The translations under genes were made by a program, and so were the position numbers. A stretch of 64,000 nt of DNA from positions 510-64,509 of the forward strand of contig CAKORG010000002.1 of assembly GCA_934101495.1 (NCBI GenBank), written 5' to 3'. The first letter of the stretch is position 1, and every line of letters starts with the position of its first letter. This stretch comes from an uncultured Bacilli bacterium (lineage in GTDB: Bacteria; Bacillota_I; Bacilli_A; RF39; UBA660). Positions 28,895 to 35,564 of this stretch are shown here, one piece after another. The notes under the pieces were generated by a model, which saw only the letters and a program-made list of their open reading frames with translations, was not told where the DNA came from and made no database searches.

Positions 28895-29152
28895 TTAGTT
28901 GTTTTTTTTAATTAATTTAACATTAGTTAATATTGACTTTTTATATGGCTTCCTTTCATCAGTTCTTCCCACTAAGTAGTCTAGTGAAGTGTTATAAAAT
29001 TCAGCTAAGTCATATAGATAATTAATTGGAATTAATCTTTTACCAATTTCATATTCACTATATTGTTGTTGTTTTATACCTAATGCTTTAGCAACATCTA
29101 TTTGTTTTAAATCTTTATCTTCGCGTATTTCTTTTAATCTTGATATATCCAT
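28895..29152 (-). CDS. XRE-family helix-turn-helix transcriptional regulator
   Basis: 85 aa. LKQIDVAKALGIKQQQYSEYEIGKRLIPINYLYDLAEFYNTSLDYLVGRTD is a canonical HTH_3 domain. Confidence 0.9.
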   Translation of the reverse strand: MDISRLKEIREDKDLKQIDVAKALGIKQQQYSEYEIGKRLIPINYLYDLAEFYNTSLDYLVGRTDERKPYKKSILTNVKLIKKNN

Positions 29153-29179: not shown

Positions 29180-29220
29180 ACAAAGGATGTTTTGTATTGA
29201 TTTTACAAGACATCTTTTGT
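29180..29220. promoter_or_regulatory. operator-like inverted repeat overlapping the island promoter
   Basis: ACAAAGGATGT (29180-29190) and ACATCTTTTGT (29210-29220) are complementary at 10 of 11 positions, 19 nt apart. Confidence 0.5.
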
Positions 29221-29225
29221 ATAAT
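29197..29225 (+). promoter_or_regulatory. sigma-A promoter of the accessory operon
   Basis: TTGATT at 29197-29202, 17-nt spacer, TATAAT at 29220-29225. Confidence 0.6.
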
Positions 29226-29267
29226 GTTTGTAGAATAGTAATGTTCTTGATTACTTAGGAGGTATTT

Positions 29268-29804
29268 ATGGATCAACTAGAAGAAAAAGAAATAGAAATT
29301 AGTAGAGAGTATGATTATTCTAATTCTGTTCCTGAAGTACAAAACATTTTGTTTTTAGCTAAATACTGCTATTCTTACTATGTTCAATTAATTAAAATGT
29401 GTGAAGAAGATGAAGAAAAAAACCGAATTTTAAAATCTGAATATAAAGATTTTCTATATAAAAAATCATTTAGTTCTAAATACGAAGTTGCCATTAGAGA
29501 AAAAGACGTTTTTTCAAGTCTGTCATGCAAAACATACGATTCTTTAGTTGAAGCGGCTAATTCTGGACATCTTAAAAATGTAGAAAGTGTGGTAATAACT
29601 TTAGATTTATCGTTTAGAAGAGGAAGAGATATGGCTACAAAAGAACATGAAAATTTATTTAAAATATCTTTTAAACCATATAATATTGTTTTTATTCGCA
29701 AATCTAATTATGCGGATTCTAGTATGGATAATATAGAAAATGTTATAAATGAGATTTTAAAAAAGTTTAGAGTGCAAAATACTATATTCTGTACCAAGGA
29801 ATAA
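29268..29804 (+). CDS. hypothetical soluble protein (178 aa), paralogous to the N-domain of the next ORF
   Basis: GGAGG RBS. By eye it shares the pattern E(D/E)E.KNR.L.S.Y...(S)K..V.I......YDS... with the product of 29829-30773. Confidence 0.65.
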   Translation: MDQLEEKEIEISREYDYSNSVPEVQNILFLAKYCYSYYVQLIKMCEEDEEKNRILKSEYKDFLYKKSFSSKYEVAIREKDVFSSLSCKTYDSLVEAANSGHLKNVESVVITLDLSFRRGRDMATKEHENLFKISFKPYNIVFIRKSNYADSSMDNIENVINEILKKFRVQNTIFCTKE

Positions 29805-29828
29805 ATTATAGTGGACGGAGGTAAAAAA

Positions 29829-30773
29829 ATGTATAACGATACAATTAAAGCTGAAAATAAAATAATAAGTAGTGATGATTTGGCACAAATATTTCAATTG
29901 ATGGGAGAAACATTAAAAAAGTATCTTAGAGTTTCTGAGCAAGAAGAAATGAAAAATAGAATGTTAGATAGTTCTTATCAAAGCTATACTTTTAAGGATG
30001 AAGGTAGTAAAATAAAAGTGATTGTTGATTTTTATGATAATACAAATATTACTTTTGATAACTATGATAGTTTTATGGGTATATTTTATAGTAGAATAAA
30101 TGAAATAAAGACTATGGACGTTTATTATTCATTAAATTATACTGTCATGAATCCCGAACCAAATAGAAGTAGAAGTTATTATACTCAATCAATTCAAATG
30201 CATATTAATGAAAATAAATTATCTATAGAATTAAACTTAAAAAGTGAAGATCCTAAACTAGATGATGTATATAAGTTTATAAAAAACAAAATACTTAATG
30301 CTCCAGAGAAATATGATGATATAATTAAAAATAAAAACAAAATTATGAATACGATTACCTTTGCTACTGGGTTAATACCTGGTATGGTTATGGCAGCTTT
30401 ATTATTATTTGTTCCATATGTTAATAATATAATTTTTAAGGGTTTTGTTGTTTATCCGTTAATTGTTTTATTCATTGCTTATCTAATTGGTAGTATGATT
30501 GCTTCATCTAAACTAGATAACTATTATGAGCCAATAATACCTAGTAAAAAATACGTTGGGTATGATTCAACAAATAATGAAAGAATTTATAAAGACGATA
30601 TAGATTCATTTGTAAGTTCTAGTGAAATTTTGATAGGTAAAAAAGTTAATAATTTAGATTATCGCAGAATAATTAAAAAAGAATATGAAAAGTATAAAGA
30701 TTTGATTCCAAAGGAATTAGTTGCATTATTGATTGTAACCATTATTATCATTATTATCGGGATATTTATTTAA
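29829..30773 (+). CDS. hypothetical membrane protein (cytoplasmic N-domain plus 3 TM helices)
   Basis: GGAGG lies 7 nt before ATG 29829. TM helices: ITFATGLIPGMVMAALLLFVPYV, GFVVYPLIVLFIAYLIGSMIASS and C-terminal LVALLIVTIIIIIIGIFI. Confidence 0.65.
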   Translation: MYNDTIKAENKIISSDDLAQIFQLMGETLKKYLRVSEQEEMKNRMLDSSYQSYTFKDEGSKIKVIVDFYDNTNITFDNYDSFMGIFYSRINEIKTMDVYYSLNYTVMNPEPNRSRSYYTQSIQMHINENKLSIELNLKSEDPKLDDVYKFIKNKILNAPEKYDDIIKNKNKIMNTITFATGLIPGMVMAALLLFVPYVNNIIFKGFVVYPLIVLFIAYLIGSMIASSKLDNYYEPIIPSKKYVGYDSTNNERIYKDDIDSFVSSSEILIGKKVNNLDYRRIIKKEYEKYKDLIPKELVALLIVTIIIIIIGIFI

Positions 30774-30804
30774 AAATTGTATAAAGTAAAAGGAAGAAGT
30801 AAAA

Positions 30805-31587
30805 ATGGATGGAAAAATAAGAGAAATTATTGACGAGTATAAAAAAAGAACTGAGAAGGAATGTTGTTTTATAAATTATGCTTTTGAATTTCCAACTATA
30901 TTAGACGACAAGATTGGAGGAAAACCCTATTTACCTGTGGGAGAAGAGTATCCAAAAGATAAGTATGGAAATCCAATGGCTTTATTCATGCAAGTGAATT
31001 TGACAAAGTTAGATTTAGAAGGTTATCCAAAAGGAATTTTAGAATTGTTTGTTACAACAAATGAAGATGATCTTTTTGACTTTGAAATAGCAGAAGGTAG
31101 CTTTGAAATAAAGCTTTTTGAAGAAGATTTAGAATACCAAACAATACTACCTGATGTGAAATTAGAAACATTTTTAGTAAGTGGTCCAATAAAAATAGAG
31201 TTTAATAAAGGGAAAATGAGCATGCCATATAATATGGGAGATAATAAAGCTGTAAATTTATTGTTAGATTTATTTGAAGAAAAATTTGATGTAAAAATAA
31301 ATTATCCAAGTGATTTGGAAAAATTATTTGGTATAGATTATTATGATTTACAAGATAAATTAGATGATGGTAGTGGTTTTGCTTCACATGTAGGGGCTTA
31401 TGCGGCTTTTATAAATGACCCATATATTGATTATTATGATAAAGAAGAATGCTTAATTTTTATTGGATCAAATTTAAGTGAAATGTTTGATTTGGGTAAC
31501 GCCTCTAGCTTTTATGTGTTAATATCAAGAAAAGATTTGTTAAATAAAGATTTTTCAAATGTTACTTGTAATTTTGAATGGTCATAA
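30805..31587 (+). CDS. YwqG/DUF1963-family protein
   Basis: GGKPYLPVGEEYPKDKYGNPMALFMQVNL, and C-terminal FYVLISRKDLLNKDFSNV, typical of the YwqG family. Confidence 0.7.
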   Translation: MDGKIREIIDEYKKRTEKECCFINYAFEFPTILDDKIGGKPYLPVGEEYPKDKYGNPMALFMQVNLTKLDLEGYPKGILELFVTTNEDDLFDFEIAEGSFEIKLFEEDLEYQTILPDVKLETFLVSGPIKIEFNKGKMSMPYNMGDNKAVNLLLDLFEEKFDVKINYPSDLEKLFGIDYYDLQDKLDDGSGFASHVGAYAAFINDPYIDYYDKEECLIFIGSNLSEMFDLGNASSFYVLISRKDLLNKDFSNVTCNFEWS

Positions 31588-31601
31588 AAAGGAGAAATCA
31601 T

Positions 31602-31853
31602 ATGGAAGAAGAGAGAAAAGATAATAAAGTAATAATCAATGGCAAAGAATATGAAATTATTTCTTATATTGCTATTGATAGTGGAAATTTCATTGTTTAT
31701 ACGGATGGAAAACAATTAGAAAATGGAAAAATTGTGTTATATGTTAATCGTGTTTCTCAAGAAAATGAAGAAATAGTATTTGATGAAGTAGAAGATACTG
31801 AAGTAATGCAAGTAATTGATGCATTAAGAGAAAGGTTGATAACTAATGAATAA
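31602..31853 (+). CDS. DUF1292-like small acidic protein
   Basis: NGKEYEIISYIAIDSGNFIVY...IVLYVNRV...EIVFDEVEDTEVMQVIDAL follows the DUF1292/YrzB pattern. GGAG lies 7 nt before the ATG. Confidence 0.5.
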   Translation: MEEERKDNKVIINGKEYEIISYIAIDSGNFIVYTDGKQLENGKIVLYVNRVSQENEEIVFDEVEDTEVMQVIDALRERLITNE

Positions 31854-33192
31854 TAAATATGATAGTTTAGTTGATTATTCTATAGAACTTAGAAAGAGCA
31901 TAGAAAAAGTTGATACTGTTATACTTTGGTCGAAACCTCCGAAACAAATGGGAAGTTTAAAAGTTACACTACGAGGTATTTCTGAGATTTTTGAAAATAT
32001 TAAAAAAGTGCAAGAATTGCGAGAAAAAATGAGAAAATTTCCTAGTATGGATAATGAAGCTAAGCAAGAAAATAAAAGTGCTAGAAAGGCTGCGGACCAA
32101 ATAAGTTCTATAAGAGAAGAACTAGCTGAAAGTTTTTCTAAAATGCGAGATGAATTTTCAAAACAAATGAAAATTGCAGGAAAACAGTGTAGAGAAGTAA
32201 GTAGTTCAATAACTGATAAACGAGATAAAGAAACATTTAAATCCTCATGTAAAAACTTTGAGAGAATGGCTTATGAAGCTGAATATGAAAAACATAGAAT
32301 ACCTTTTGTTGAAAAACAGACTACAGAAGAAAGAATACAAGACCCAATAAGAAGAGAACATAAGGAAAAAGAGGAAAAAATAAATAGACTTTCAGAGTTT
32401 GAATTAGAGAATAACGATAAATTAGAGGTGGCTTTAAGTGAACTTACTACAATATTAGCATTAACTCCGATGGATAATTTATCAAAAGAAATTAGAAGTG
32501 AAGTTGCTCAGATTAGGAAAGCTTTGCCACCTAAAACTATGTCTATAACTAAAGAAAATTTAGAAAAACTACGACATTCTTCGCATTTGTTGCTAGACTT
32601 AGACCAAATAAGTGATATCTTGAAAACTACTTATGGTTTTGATGGAAAAGATGGAAGATTACAAAAAATAAATAAAAGATTAGAAAACTTAAAAACATTA
32701 TTAACACAAGCAATAAAAGAAGAAAAAGAAAATAGAGTAGACCTTAAACAAGAACAAGATAGTCTTCAAAGTAAGGTTGATTATGCAACTGAAGCTGTTA
32801 AAACTTATGGTGATATATTAGATGGAAATCAAAGACTTGAACAGGAACAGATACGAATTAGTAATGAAACTCATGGACTAAATGCTGAAAACGAAAGATT
32901 AAAAGCTGATGAGAAAAAAGCAAGTGAAGAGATGCATGAAATACAAAAGAAACCCGTTGATAGACAAGATTGGAAAGATGAACTAAAAGTTGATCAATTA
33001 CATGAACGGGCAAAAAATGATCGTGAAATGATAAAAGATAATGAAACTTATATGGCTGATAAAATGTACGAAAAACCTGTAGTTACTTTGCCGCCGGAAT
33101 ACACTAACATGAAAAAGAAACTTCAAAGTATGAGTTCTTTATATCAAAAGCAAATGACTCAACAACTATCTAATGGAGGTGCTTCAAGATAA
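31846..33192 (+). CDS. hypothetical 448-aa highly charged coiled-coil protein
   Basis: Long ORF overlapping the upstream stop by 8 nt. K/E-rich with heptad-like stretches. No enzymatic motif recognised. Confidence 0.6.
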   Translation: MNNKYDSLVDYSIELRKSIEKVDTVILWSKPPKQMGSLKVTLRGISEIFENIKKVQELREKMRKFPSMDNEAKQENKSARKAADQISSIREELAESFSKMRDEFSKQMKIAGKQCREVSSSITDKRDKETFKSSCKNFERMAYEAEYEKHRIPFVEKQTTEERIQDPIRREHKEKEEKINRLSEFELENNDKLEVALSELTTILALTPMDNLSKEIRSEVAQIRKALPPKTMSITKENLEKLRHSSHLLLDLDQISDILKTTYGFDGKDGRLQKINKRLENLKTLLTQAIKEEKENRVDLKQEQDSLQSKVDYATEAVKTYGDILDGNQRLEQEQIRISNETHGLNAENERLKADEKKASEEMHEIQKKPVDRQDWKDELKVDQLHERAKNDREMIKDNETYMADKMYEKPVVTLPPEYTNMKKKLQSMSSLYQKQMTQQLSNGGASR

Positions 33193-33473
33193 TGGAAGAT
33201 AAGCAAAAAGTTTTTGCATCTTTTATGGATGAATTTGTTAAACTAGATATTAGTCAAAAAAACAATGAAATAGTTGAAAAACAAAAGTTAATATTAGCTT
33301 TTTTAATTAAATTTGCAACAGAACATGGAATTAGCTTTGAATTTTTAAAAAGCAAGGAAATAAGTGATATAGAGGGAAACAATGGAACTAATGAAGATTA
33401 TTTAGAAGCTATGATGGTTTATACTCAAAATATTGAAGAGTTAATAGGAATTATATTAGGAAATATACAATAA
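33192..33473 (+). CDS. hypothetical small helical protein (93 aa)
   Basis: The start overlaps the upstream stop by 1 nt (TAATG). Confidence 0.5.
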   Translation: MEDKQKVFASFMDEFVKLDISQKNNEIVEKQKLILAFLIKFATEHGISFEFLKSKEISDIEGNNGTNEDYLEAMMVYTQNIEELIGIILGNIQ

Positions 33474-33498
33474 ATTGTTTAAGAAAGAAGGAAAAATT

Positions 33499-33765
33499 AT
33501 GAATGAAGAAGAAACCAAAAGAATTATTGAAACGTTTAAAAGTTCGAGAGAAAAAATTGGCGAACAATATGAAACACTAATTAAAGAAGTAGATAACGAT
33601 TTAAAAAAGATATTAACTGAAGAAGAATATAATGTTTGGAATGCAGTAAATGGTGATAGAGATAAAGAACAAGAGTTAATAAATAAGATTGGTAAAGAAA
33701 GATATAAGGTATTATTAAGTAAAATAAGTGATAAAATATCAGATAAAATGAAAAATGTTAATTAA
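33499..33765 (+). CDS. hypothetical small helical protein (88 aa)
   Basis: ATG 33499 is preceded by GAAGGA. Charged and predicted helical. Confidence 0.5.
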   Translation: MNEEETKRIIETFKSSREKIGEQYETLIKEVDNDLKKILTEEEYNVWNAVNGDRDKEQELINKIGKERYKVLLSKISDKISDKMKNVN

Positions 33766-34438
33766 AGTGGTTGCAGTTATGATGGAAATAAATAGATTAA
33801 AAAGAAAAGATATAAGAGAAAAATTACTTGGTATTAATCATAGTTCAGAAGATTTTGAAATTAATTTTGTTAGTGTTGTTGAAGATTATATCTCAAATCA
33901 TGAATTTGAATCAGATGATGATTTTCTATTTTGTGGAAGAAAAAAATTTCTATATGATGAGTTTTATGAATATTTAGATAATAAAGAAAAATACGAAAAT
34001 CCTATACACTTTGCTATTATTAATTTAGAGGAATTTATTTGTGATGATAATTTTATTTCTTTAACTATGGATATTGATAAACAGTATTGGAAAAATGAAG
34101 AAAAACTAGATGGAAGTGTTGTTGCAAAATTAAGGAATAGAAATGATAAATATTCTGCATCGGGATACATTTGTCTAGAAGAAAAAGAATATATTGTAGA
34201 AATGCTTAATAGAATTAAAAAAGAAATGTTTAGAACCGATAAATTTACTTATCATGAGGGCGAGATTAAAATAGTTGATTGTCAATGTGAATTATGTAAT
34301 CATTATAATAATGGAAAAAGAAGTGATGTATGTCCAGTTGAATTATTAGATAAAATAATTATTAATGAAATTAGTTGTCCCGTTTCTGCTGAAGAAAATT
34401 CATTTGAAAACATTATGAAGAGGATTGATTCGAATTAA
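33755..34438 (+). CDS. hypothetical protein with C-terminal Cys cluster
   Basis: CQCELCNHYNNGKRSDVCPVE...ISCP near the C-terminus. Alternative start at 33779. Confidence 0.5.
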   Translation: MLIKVVAVMMEINRLKRKDIREKLLGINHSSEDFEINFVSVVEDYISNHEFESDDDFLFCGRKKFLYDEFYEYLDNKEKYENPIHFAIINLEEFICDDNFISLTMDIDKQYWKNEEKLDGSVVAKLRNRNDKYSASGYICLEEKEYIVEMLNRIKKEMFRTDKFTYHEGEIKIVDCQCELCNHYNNGKRSDVCPVELLDKIIINEISCPVSAEENSFENIMKRIDSN

Positions 34439-34517
34439 ACTGATCTAAAAATTATGATTTATCTTTACGCTGATTTTAAAATAACCATTTAATAAGTAAG
34501 AAAGGAATGAAATTTAA

Positions 34518-35564
34518 ATGAATAATAATATAGTCTTATATAAATCAACTGGTGAGGGTTATGAAATAACTACTATTAAAGAAAATGGAAATGTTGAATA
34601 CAAAAGTAATTCAAGTGATAAAAAAATAGTTCATATAGATTTTTTTAATGATTTAGTGAATGAATTAAATGGTGCTTTTGAAAAAATGCAATACGTTTAT
34701 GATAATGAAAAAAGTGAAACATTTTGTGTTAGATATAGAAATTATGATTTTTATAGTTTTGATTTATATTTAGATATTATATTAATGATTAGAAATAACA
34801 AATTAAAAAAGCTATCTGTTTATGAAAAATATAAAAAATTAAAAAAAACGCAAGAAAAGCAAAAAATTTCAACAATTTTAAACAAATTAGAAAACGAAAA
34901 AAATAAAATTGATATAATAGATGTTGATTCAACATTAAATGATGAAAGAAATATTATATTATTTGATTTAATTAATAAAAATGAGTTTCGAGTTGGAGAA
35001 ACAAAGTTTTTTTCAAATACTGTTGATGTAAATGAAAATGTAGAGATACCAGAATATTTAATATTTGTTGGACAAATAAATTTGGAAGAAGTGTCAAAGT
35101 ATGATATAAATAAACTATTACCTAAAAAGGGAATGCTGTATTTTTATATAAGCCCATTATTCTATAATGATAAAATGTATGACTTTGGAAAAGTTATTTA
35201 TGTTCCTTCAGCTGAAGATTTAGTAAGAAAAAAAGTAACTATGTCAGAAGAAGAAACAATGGATTCTTTTGGAATAAACAATATTAAAAATTGCAATGAG
35301 AAATTTAGTGATAGATATTATTTTGAAAAAGGAAAAAAAACATATTCACATTTTTATGGAGAAAAACTTAATAAAATATTTGGATTTTATACTGATTGTC
35401 AAATGGATGAGGGAGATATAAGGAAAGTATCTAATAAATATATAGTGTTATTACAATTAGGAACGCAGATATATGGAGAAGGAGTTACTACATTTTTAAT
35501 AACAGAGGAAGATTTGAAAAATAAGAATTTTGATAATGTTATTTATCAATATGTTCAATCATAA
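34518..35564 (+). CDS. YwqG/DUF1963-family protein with about 170-aa N-terminal extension
   Basis: IPEYLIFVGQINLEEVSKYDINKLLPKKGMLYFYIS, and C-terminal YIVLLQLGTQIYGEGVTTFLITEEDLKNKNFDNV. Confidence 0.65.
   Translation: MNNNIVLYKSTGEGYEITTIKENGNVEYKSNSSDKKIVHIDFFNDLVNELNGAFEKMQYVYDNEKSETFCVRYRNYDFYSFDLYLDIILMIRNNKLKKLSVYEKYKKLKKTQEKQKISTILNKLENEKNKIDIIDVDSTLNDERNIILFDLINKNEFRVGETKFFSNTVDVNENVEIPEYLIFVGQINLEEVSKYDINKLLPKKGMLYFYISPLFYNDKMYDFGKVIYVPSAEDLVRKKVTMSEEETMDSFGINNIKNCNEKFSDRYYFEKGKKTYSHFYGEKLNKIFGFYTDCQMDEGDIRKVSNKYIVLLQLGTQIYGEGVTTFLITEEDLKNKNFDNVIYQYVQS

Follow-up and report, generated by a model that had tools for sequence, protein, structure and literature searches.

A conserved pair of paralogous soluble and membrane proteins in uncultured gut Bacilli

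Organization of the locus

The window analyzed here, a stretch of 64,000 nucleotides (nt) of an uncultured gut bacterium, carries two adjacent genes, below called A and B, which encode a soluble protein of 178 amino acids (aa) and a membrane protein of 314 aa. The soluble protein and the N-terminal domain of the membrane protein are remote paralogues, and the two genes have been inherited together in at least 46 related species. All coordinates are positions in the window, counted on the forward strand. The pair and the region upstream of it comprise the following features:

28895..29152, minus strand, XRE/Cro-C1-type helix-turn-helix (HTH) regulator of 85 aa, divergent from gene A
29180..29220, plus strand, operator-like palindrome with 17-bp arms (29180-29196 and 29204-29220), complementary at 15 of 17 positions
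29197-29225, plus strand, promoter-like TTGATT-17-TATAAT, from a consensus scan and direct reading
29257..29262, plus strand, Shine-Dalgarno AGGAGG of gene A, 5 nt 5' of the ATG
29268..29804, plus strand, gene A, open reading frame (ORF) of the 178-aa soluble alpha+beta protein, A domain alone
29817..29821, plus strand, Shine-Dalgarno GGAGG of gene B, 7 nt 5' of ATG 29829
29829..30773, plus strand, gene B, 314-aa membrane protein; the ORF was called from GTG 29811 (320 aa)

Both ORFs are present as they were described in the initial annotation of this DNA. The start of B is most likely ATG 29829 and not the annotated GTG 29811, because all homologues are 311-314 aa long and a GGAGG lies at 29817-21. 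The stop of A is separated from the start of B by 24 nt, and no terminator-like site was found between them. The genes are adjacent, co-oriented and share a promoter, which points to their co-transcription. The G+C content is ~27% across the whole window, and that of the pair is the same as in its flanks.

The 85-aa protein matches Pfam HTH_3 (E 2.2e-15) and PHROG 8, a transcriptional regulator (6.7e-20), and its gene occupies an identical position in the same-species contigs L082 and L083. It is a likely candidate for the repressor of the promoter of the island that begins with the pair. The -35 element TTGATT (29197-29202) is located at the centre of the palindrome and the -10 element TATAAT corresponds to 29220-29225, so that the promoter overlaps the palindrome and would be repressed there. 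The initial annotation had called the pair the first cistron set after a repressed promoter; with the divergent XRE gene and the palindromic promoter this is a fair description, in which the repression itself is putative.

Homology of A and the N-terminal domain of B

The similarity of the two proteins had been noticed by eye over the first approximately 180 residues of B. Profile alignment with hhalign, reciprocal profile searches and AlphaFold models demonstrate that A and the first ~160 residues of B are real remote paralogues. Pairwise BLASTP of A against B is marginal (E 6e-4 over 53 residues, which is the stretch quoted in the initial annotation). Alignment of hidden Markov models (HMMs) built from the first family alignments (36 A and 34 B sequences) gave a probability of 81% with E 1.2e-5 over 95 columns. 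With 150 A domains, collected by searching 1.8 billion cluster representatives, and 65 N-terminal domains of B from 64 genomes, the paralogy was confirmed at 98.8% probability and E 1.3e-16 over 149 columns, A residues 17-169 being aligned with B residues 8-160.

A profile of A alone retrieves the B-type membrane proteins P0295 and P0300 from the same 1.8 billion representatives with library-wide E-values of 2.8e-6 and 1e-4. In a set of 2504 ORFs the B HMM matches A proteins down to 1e-14, and the A HMM matches B proteins at 1e-5 to 1e-10. The AlphaFold2 models (predicted local distance difference test, pLDDT, of 83 for A and 85 for B) have a common order of elements, which begins with two short strands and a 30-residue helix, continues with three strands and a second helix, and ends with a meander of several strands and a further helix. 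The long helix of both families contains an acidic (E/D)E-x-x-N motif, the Asn of which is invariant in each (Asn52 of A, Asn43 of B). The identity between A and the N-terminal domain of B is ~14%; they constitute two old, distinct families, each much closer to its own orthologues in other species. It is possible that A arose as a copy of the N-terminal domain of B.

Architecture of the two proteins

Protein A is devoid of hydrophobic segments (maximum 19-residue hydropathy 0.99). Its homologues form 48 clusters with the conserved motifs DYSN, EDEEKN and FKPY-I-F-RKSN. The tail NTIFC(T/S)K (residues 171-178, 29778-29801) has no counterpart in B and is predicted to be disordered (pLDDT 46), and its Phe174 and Cys175 are invariant in 36 sequences down to 41% identity. 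Such a tail could serve as a short motif for docking or modification.

Protein B is built of four parts:

29829..30323, plus strand, A-like (A') domain, residues 1-165, predicted to be cytoplasmic, from hhalign and the shared order of elements
30354..30512, plus strand, hairpin of transmembrane (TM) helices TM1-loop-TM2, residues 176-228, from hydropathy, conservation and the AlphaFold2 model
30513..30707, plus strand, K/R-rich mini-domain, predicted beta-hairpin and helix, residues 229-293, from alignments and the AlphaFold2 model
30708..30770, plus strand, TM3, residues 294-314, from hydropathy (3.17) and an AlphaFold2 helix

The C-terminal half had been described in the initial annotation as two adjacent TM helices, a linker and a C-terminal TM helix, and this layout was reproduced, the linker being K/R-rich and ~65 residues long. 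The TM helices are placed at residues ~176-198, 206-228 and 296-314 by hydropathy (peaks of 2.07, 2.42 and 3.17) and at 169-193, 209-233 and 293-313 by the AlphaFold2 model. The hairpin contains the near-invariant residues Gly181, Pro184, Phe194, Pro196, Asn199, Lys204, Gly205, Pro210 and Gly221. The mini-domain has 13 Lys or Arg among its 65 residues and carries the motif YKDD(I/V)D-F-x-TSEILIGKK-NNL-x-R, which is kept in the distant B-type proteins P0295 and P0300 as D(V/I)D … E(V/I)x-IGK. Since no signal peptide is present and the segments flanking the hairpin are positively charged, both the A' domain and the mini-domain are most probably cytoplasmic. The C-terminus is predicted to lie in the membrane or outside the cell.

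Alignment of 34 B sequences down to 62% identity contains 71 invariant columns, as expected for a protein under strong purifying selection. The mean identity of the TM hairpin and mini-domain (0.49) is close to that of the shared domain (0.50). This equal conservation of the hairpin and mini-domain argues for B being more than a passive anchor.

Searches for known families and folds

Comparison of A and B with Pfam, NCBIfam, PHROGs and PADLOC gave nothing above noise, in agreement with the initial annotation, in which no known domain was recognized in either protein. The sole PADLOC match of the pair is that of B to Csx26 (16.7 bits, E 0.0016, 58 residues), and the homologues of A and B in contig L036 have no PADLOC match. 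Profiles of A and B retrieved only coiled-coil noise from the sequences of the PDB. Foldseek searches with the models of A and B against the PDB, and with the model of A against BFVD, returned no TM-score above 0.4; the scattered matches to SRPBCC, PsbP/Mog1, CorA and TRPML-ELD folds were judged to reflect generic alpha+beta resemblance.

DUF2207_C (PF20990) is matched below threshold by 7 of 19 B sequences (best E 1.3e-4), and the B of the window scores 15 bits against a cut-off of 33. Assignment of B to this family was rejected, because the probability was 0.2% when the B profile was aligned by hhalign with a true DUF2207 neighbour. Homologues of A and B are never named beyond "hypothetical protein" in their annotations. 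Our literature search for DUF4272 and DUF6508, two families which are linked to the pair as described below, found nothing.

Distribution and linkage of A and B

Protein B was found in 64 genomes by a pattern scan of one genome per species, with one copy per locus. Its hosts are almost all uncultured gut "Bacilli" known from metagenome-assembled genomes (human, rabbit, mouse and rumen), including Clostridium sp. CAG:433. In 46 of 65 species-level loci the gene immediately preceding B on its strand is A. The pairwise identities among A proteins are correlated with those among B proteins (r = 0.86, Mantel p = 0.001), and the divergence of the two proteins is similar (mean identity 46% for A and 50% for B). 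Thus, A and B have been inherited together in at least 46 related species.

Among 60 species there are 14 with readable upstream DNA in which a full-length, conserved B is preceded by a different gene. No remnant of A was detected by tblastn within 10 kb of B in these 14 species, in whose genomes A might sit elsewhere. On the B tree an adjacent A was gained or lost at least 8 times, 3 of these changes being forced by well-supported branches. In contig L077 (2529-3463) B is split into pieces of 213 aa and 52 aa downstream of a DUF4272-A fusion, probably because a frameshift has turned it into a pseudogene.

No copy of the pair was found in 50,697 phage records or 72,556 plasmids. One B homologue was found among 2.9 million IMG/VR contigs (L076:10001-10936, 62% identity), on a putatively viral contig of 41 kb. 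Carriage of the pair by phages or plasmids was therefore rejected.

The superfamily of B is wider than the pair. A sister subfamily, B2 (304-314 aa), has 25-27% identity to B and the same length and layout. Two deep-branching B-type proteins of 479-487 aa have an N-terminal extension with a CxxC...CxxC zinc ribbon and no A gene upstream. Their loci are:

L086:4720-7424, LemA-DUF2207-B2 operon, also found in L087, L088, L074 and L075
L057:1272-2735 and L068:9494-10933, zinc-ribbon B-type proteins

The B2 operons and the zinc-ribbon proteins mean that the B superfamily is not restricted to islands of the kind described below.

Fusions of the A domain

Longer proteins (265-1138 aa) that end in an A domain also exist; their N-terminal parts consist of DUF4272, TPR-like repeats or an unnamed module of ~180 aa. 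DUF4272 and TPR are joined to A in L030, P0173, P0183 and P0214. A separate gene just 3' of B also encodes the unnamed module, there combined with DUF6508. In L050 and L080, DUF4272 itself is part of one polypeptide with a soluble VirD4/TraG-like P-loop ATPase, and elsewhere the ATPase is encoded by a separate gene of the same operon. All fusions seen have the shared domain at an end of the protein, namely at the C-terminus of the upstream protein and at the N-terminus of B; the A of the window is the bare domain.

Wherever the context is readable (L030, L040, L051, L064, L077, L079 and L080), the gene of the A-bearing fusion is located just upstream of B. The exception is P0230, an A domain with a soluble tail and no B downstream, which comes from a contig of only 2 kb. 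In L080 (1-13584) the A fusion and B are found beside a fusion of the VirD4-like ATPase with DUF4272, His_Phos_1, NUDIX, XRE, a sigma-70-like gene, PemK and a serine recombinase of 703 aa, which suggests that this pair is carried on an integrative element.

Genomic neighbourhoods

The pair is followed in the window by a co-directional island:

30805..35564, plus strand, co-directional island after the pair, up to the second DUF1963 gene
30805-31587, plus strand, first DUF1963 (TYPP) protein, 260 aa
within 30805..35564, plus strand, then a 91-aa protein, a 448-aa coiled-coil protein, and proteins of 93 aa and 96 aa
33755-34438, plus strand, Cys-cluster protein with a C-terminal cluster, 227 aa
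34518-35564, plus strand, second DUF1963 protein, 348 aa, divergent from the first

Only a protein- or peptide-binding role has been predicted for DUF1963 (TYPP) (PMC4275035). The flanks are housekeeping genes, namely GAPDH and DUF6512 upstream and MurJ-like, FtsE, FtsX and PcsB downstream. The string of genes from A to the second DUF1963 (29268-35564) matches L009, L013 and L018. The array in the window is unidirectional and closely spaced, and its content varies across L009, L012, L013, L018 and L019. The check for an empty site found the island in all same-species contigs. In L009 (1-7226), a relative with 79% identity, a sortase, a 901-aa SpaA-type surface protein and SSB lie upstream of A and B on the opposite strand and resemble conjugative-element cargo.

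The chromosomal position of the pair is varied: it stands alone between housekeeping genes, or it heads or ends a co-directional string of genes for proteins without recognized function. Its recurrent companions are the Cys-cluster family (18 loci), ADP-ribosylglycohydrolase (11), SIMPL (10), a radical S-adenosylmethionine (SAM)/SPASM protein (9) and a 262-aa protein (9), as well as DUF1963, Metallophos, Fic and MerR or XRE regulators. The Cys-cluster proteins, the most frequent of these, are 62-1231 aa long. Since their gene directly follows that of the radical-SAM/SPASM enzyme in 9 loci, our data suggest that the Cys-cluster protein is the substrate or partner of this enzyme. The enzyme was considered as a viperin on account of a PADLOC match (pVip, 2.6e-27), and this was rejected in view of its SPASM domain.

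A long co-directional operon surrounds A and B in L036 (1760-15753) and also in L040, L043, L052 and L059, its order being kept in ~9 species. Its first part consists of MerR, a soluble VirD4/TraG-like ATPase (PF02534, no TM helix), radical-SAM/SPASM and a Cys-cluster protein of 227-1231 aa. These genes are followed by ADP-ribosylglycohydrolase, A, B, a DUF6508 protein and two proteins of 702 aa and 576 aa without assigned family.

Pfam assigns ADP-ribosylglycohydrolase, Metallophos and Fic to the flanks alongside housekeeping genes. In the neighbourhood survey, which had been proposed as a check for enrichment in defence islands, accessory genes recur, housekeeping genes are mixed with them and the matches to candidate defence families are scattered. 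The context of the pair is therefore accessory and conflict-flavoured and is not a recognized defence island.

Proposed function and alternative explanations

We tentatively favour, at somewhat less than even probability, a heteromeric unit in which A and B are associated via their homologous domains, A being a soluble regulator or adaptor and B the membrane output, with an accessory and probably conflict-related role. This reading builds on the homology of the proteins, the predicted topology of B, the conserved adjacency, the co-divergence and the pattern of fusions; the recurring accessory neighbours and the variable chromosomal position, including the serine recombinase and PemK of L080, were also counted in its favour. 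From these we infer a physical contact of A with B, the direction of regulation, an activity of B at the membrane and the biological role. The two ancient paralogues would act as one membrane-associated unit. B would be held by its three TM helices, with the A' domain and the conserved 65-residue mini-domain facing the cytoplasm, and the soluble A domain would pair with A' as a pseudo-homodimer. This pairing may regulate B or load partners onto it. Because the A domain ends larger proteins with DUF4272, TPR or the ~180-aa module, which are linked by fusion to the VirD4-like ATPase, A could be a coupling adaptor that joins variable cytoplasmic modules to a membrane output that stays constant. 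In the window the accessory unit would provide the first two cistrons of a strain-variable island gated by a repressor. Its function would most likely lie in conflict, for example in defence or in competition between bacteria, and B would act at the membrane.

Several observations weigh against this reading. B2 is the third and last gene of conserved LemA-DUF2207-B2 operons, which have the look of membrane housekeeping and contain no A partner. B is found full-length and conserved behind a different upstream gene in the 14 species mentioned above. At many loci A and B stand alone between Ldh, Alr, MnmA and aminoacyl-tRNA synthetases. Neither protein matches a known defence family in PADLOC, and the 108 proteins immediately flanking the pair gave only scattered PADLOC matches, taken as raw hits (candidate PDC-S families, MzaA, mad). 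The contact of A with B is hypothetical, and with ~14% identity A and A' are two old families, whereas the pairs of effector-associated domains with which they are compared below are typically closer. Finally, A bears no extra module in most genomes, and the word adaptor may overstate its role.

A bolder extension, which we consider unlikely, is that a multi-gene conflict system, as yet undescribed, exists in uncultured gut Bacilli and that A and B are its constant output module. The full system (L036, L040, L043 and L059) would comprise, in this order, MerR, the VirD4-like ATPase, radical-SAM/SPASM with the Cys-cluster protein, enzymes removing ADP-ribose or nucleotides, and the DUF4272 module. 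These components would signal via the A adaptor domain to the three-TM B, which would alter membrane integrity, and the window would hold a reduced, XRE-gated version.

A different explanation is a lineage-specific membrane-homeostasis or envelope-stress complex, in which B is a structural or regulatory membrane protein, A its cytoplasmic partner and the presence in islands incidental. The place of B2 as third gene of the conserved LemA-DUF2207-B2 operon keeps such a role open, and strong purifying selection on B (71 invariant columns in 34 sequences), a single copy per locus in at least 64 species of one clade, the lack of phage or plasmid carriage, the many loci with housekeeping flanks only and a G+C content equal to that of the flanks are all in line with it. 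We consider it somewhat unlikely, since the chromosomal position differs even among the closest relatives (79% identity), the linkage to or fusion with ADP-ribosylglycohydrolase, VirD4-like ATPase, DUF4272, radical SAM, Metallophos and NUDIX behind XRE or MerR gates is recurrent, and hhalign detects no homology of B to the DUF2207 partner (0.2% probability). A polyimmunity locus, where A and B would be soluble and membrane-anchored immunity proteins against toxins of competitors and the A fusions polyimmunity proteins, is a further explanation: a unidirectional tight string with content varying between relatives and with unrelated non-enzymatic domains fused is among the listed features of such loci (PMC3482391), ADP-ribosylglycohydrolase could reverse the action of ADP-ribosylating toxins, and the DUF1963/TYPP neighbours are predicted protein-binding domains. 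It is nevertheless improbable, given that no island protein matches a Pfam Imm, SUKH or SuFu family and neither a toxin gene nor a secretion system was seen in any locus. The VirD4-like ATPase and the radical-SAM/SPASM enzyme of the extended loci are not of immunity type, and A and B are far more conserved and more constant than usual immunity genes.

The initial annotation had proposed a two-gene toxin-antitoxin or abortive-infection module, B being a membrane-disrupting toxin and A a decoy or antitoxin. The arrangement on which it was based, a stand-alone copy of a domain beside a membrane-fused copy, was borne out. A role of the soluble copy as partner or regulator is probable and is strengthened by the A fusions just upstream of B. 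The specific toxin-antitoxin or abortive-infection claim was not supported. A small soluble gene 24 nt upstream of a co-directional membrane-protein gene, the co-divergence of the two, an operon behind a putative repressor, the vicinity of PemK and a serine recombinase in L080 and the few flanking genes that match PADLOC candidate families would all suit it. It was weakened mainly because B persists without A and no carriage on mobile elements was seen: 14 of 60 species have an intact B with no A beside it and no remnant within 10 kb, the changes on the tree are repeated and independent, and a single match was found in 2.9 million viral contigs. In addition, neither protein matches a toxin-antitoxin, abortive-infection (Abi) or defence family, the neighbours are mixed, and a single copy is conserved throughout the clade. 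The claim is thus weakened though not refuted; a classical toxin-antitoxin pair is not supported, and we regard this explanation as improbable.

Comparison with known systems

Neither the A nor the B family is listed in any domain or defence database. Together they make up a conserved unit in dozens of species of uncultured gut Bacilli, and the pair is a clear natural case of one domain that occurs both free and tethered to the membrane. The fusion network ties together the orphan families DUF4272 and DUF6508, the soluble VirD4-like ATPase and the Cys-cluster protein, and provides a testable context for each of them. If B is a regulated membrane effector, the pair would belong to a new bacterial conflict system in a lineage with almost no experimental data. 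If B serves membrane homeostasis, it would help to explain the LemA-DUF2207 operons, which are as obscure as the pair. A and B are a well-delimited target with a rich fusion network, their activity being hypothetical.

In B a two-TM hairpin, which has a conserved loop, comes after a cytoplasmic alpha/beta domain. This layout is similar to that of CorA/Mrs2-type channels, and weak Foldseek matches to them were obtained with both models. In contrast to these channels, the loop PYVNNIIFKGF of B is without GMN and there is no long stalk helix; the TM-scores are 0.13-0.20. The assignment of B as such a channel was rejected, the resemblance being one of layout only. The LemA-DUF2207 operons share with the window pair a protein of the B type, as their third gene encodes B2, the sister of B with the same length and architecture; the window pair differs in having neither LemA nor DUF2207 as a neighbour, and B is not detectably homologous to DUF2207.

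Polyimmunity loci (Zhang et al. 2012, PMC3482391) are similar in being unidirectional, packed and strain-variable strings of mostly non-enzymatic proteins without known function, with fusions of unrelated domains. Here, however, no recognized immunity family, toxin or secretion system is present, the pair is a constant core and not an interchangeable cassette, and its extended versions hold an ATPase and a radical-SAM enzyme. With type II toxin-antitoxin and membrane-toxin Abi systems the pair shares the compact two-gene unit, the small soluble protein encoded upstream of a membrane protein and the (predicted) HTH-regulated promoter. It differs from them in that A and B have no homology to toxins or antitoxins and are paralogues of each other, B persists without A in 14 species, and there is no phage or plasmid carriage.

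A parallel in organization, which was counted as a precedent for the favoured reading, is offered by the effector-associated domains (EADs) of NTPase-centred conflict systems. These domains occur in adjacent genes, and their homotypic contact is proposed to link components (Kaur, Burroughs, Iyer, Aravind 2020, PMC7159879). As in those systems, one non-catalytic domain is found at the termini of the products of two adjacent genes, A' on a TM output module and A on variable or core components, and the components on the side of A are elsewhere fused to one another. In contrast to EADs, the A domain has a greater size (~150 aa, alpha+beta) and no relationship to EAD1-10, and A and A' are old separate families with 14% identity, whereas EAD copies are close lineage-specific paralogues. 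Moreover, the soluble A is fused to nothing in most genomes, including the window, and its link to an NTPase is indirect, leading from the VirD4-like ATPase via DUF4272 to A. The families of A and B are thus undescribed and their fold is unmatched, while the organizing principle, an adaptor domain shared by a soluble and an effector-bearing protein, is already known.

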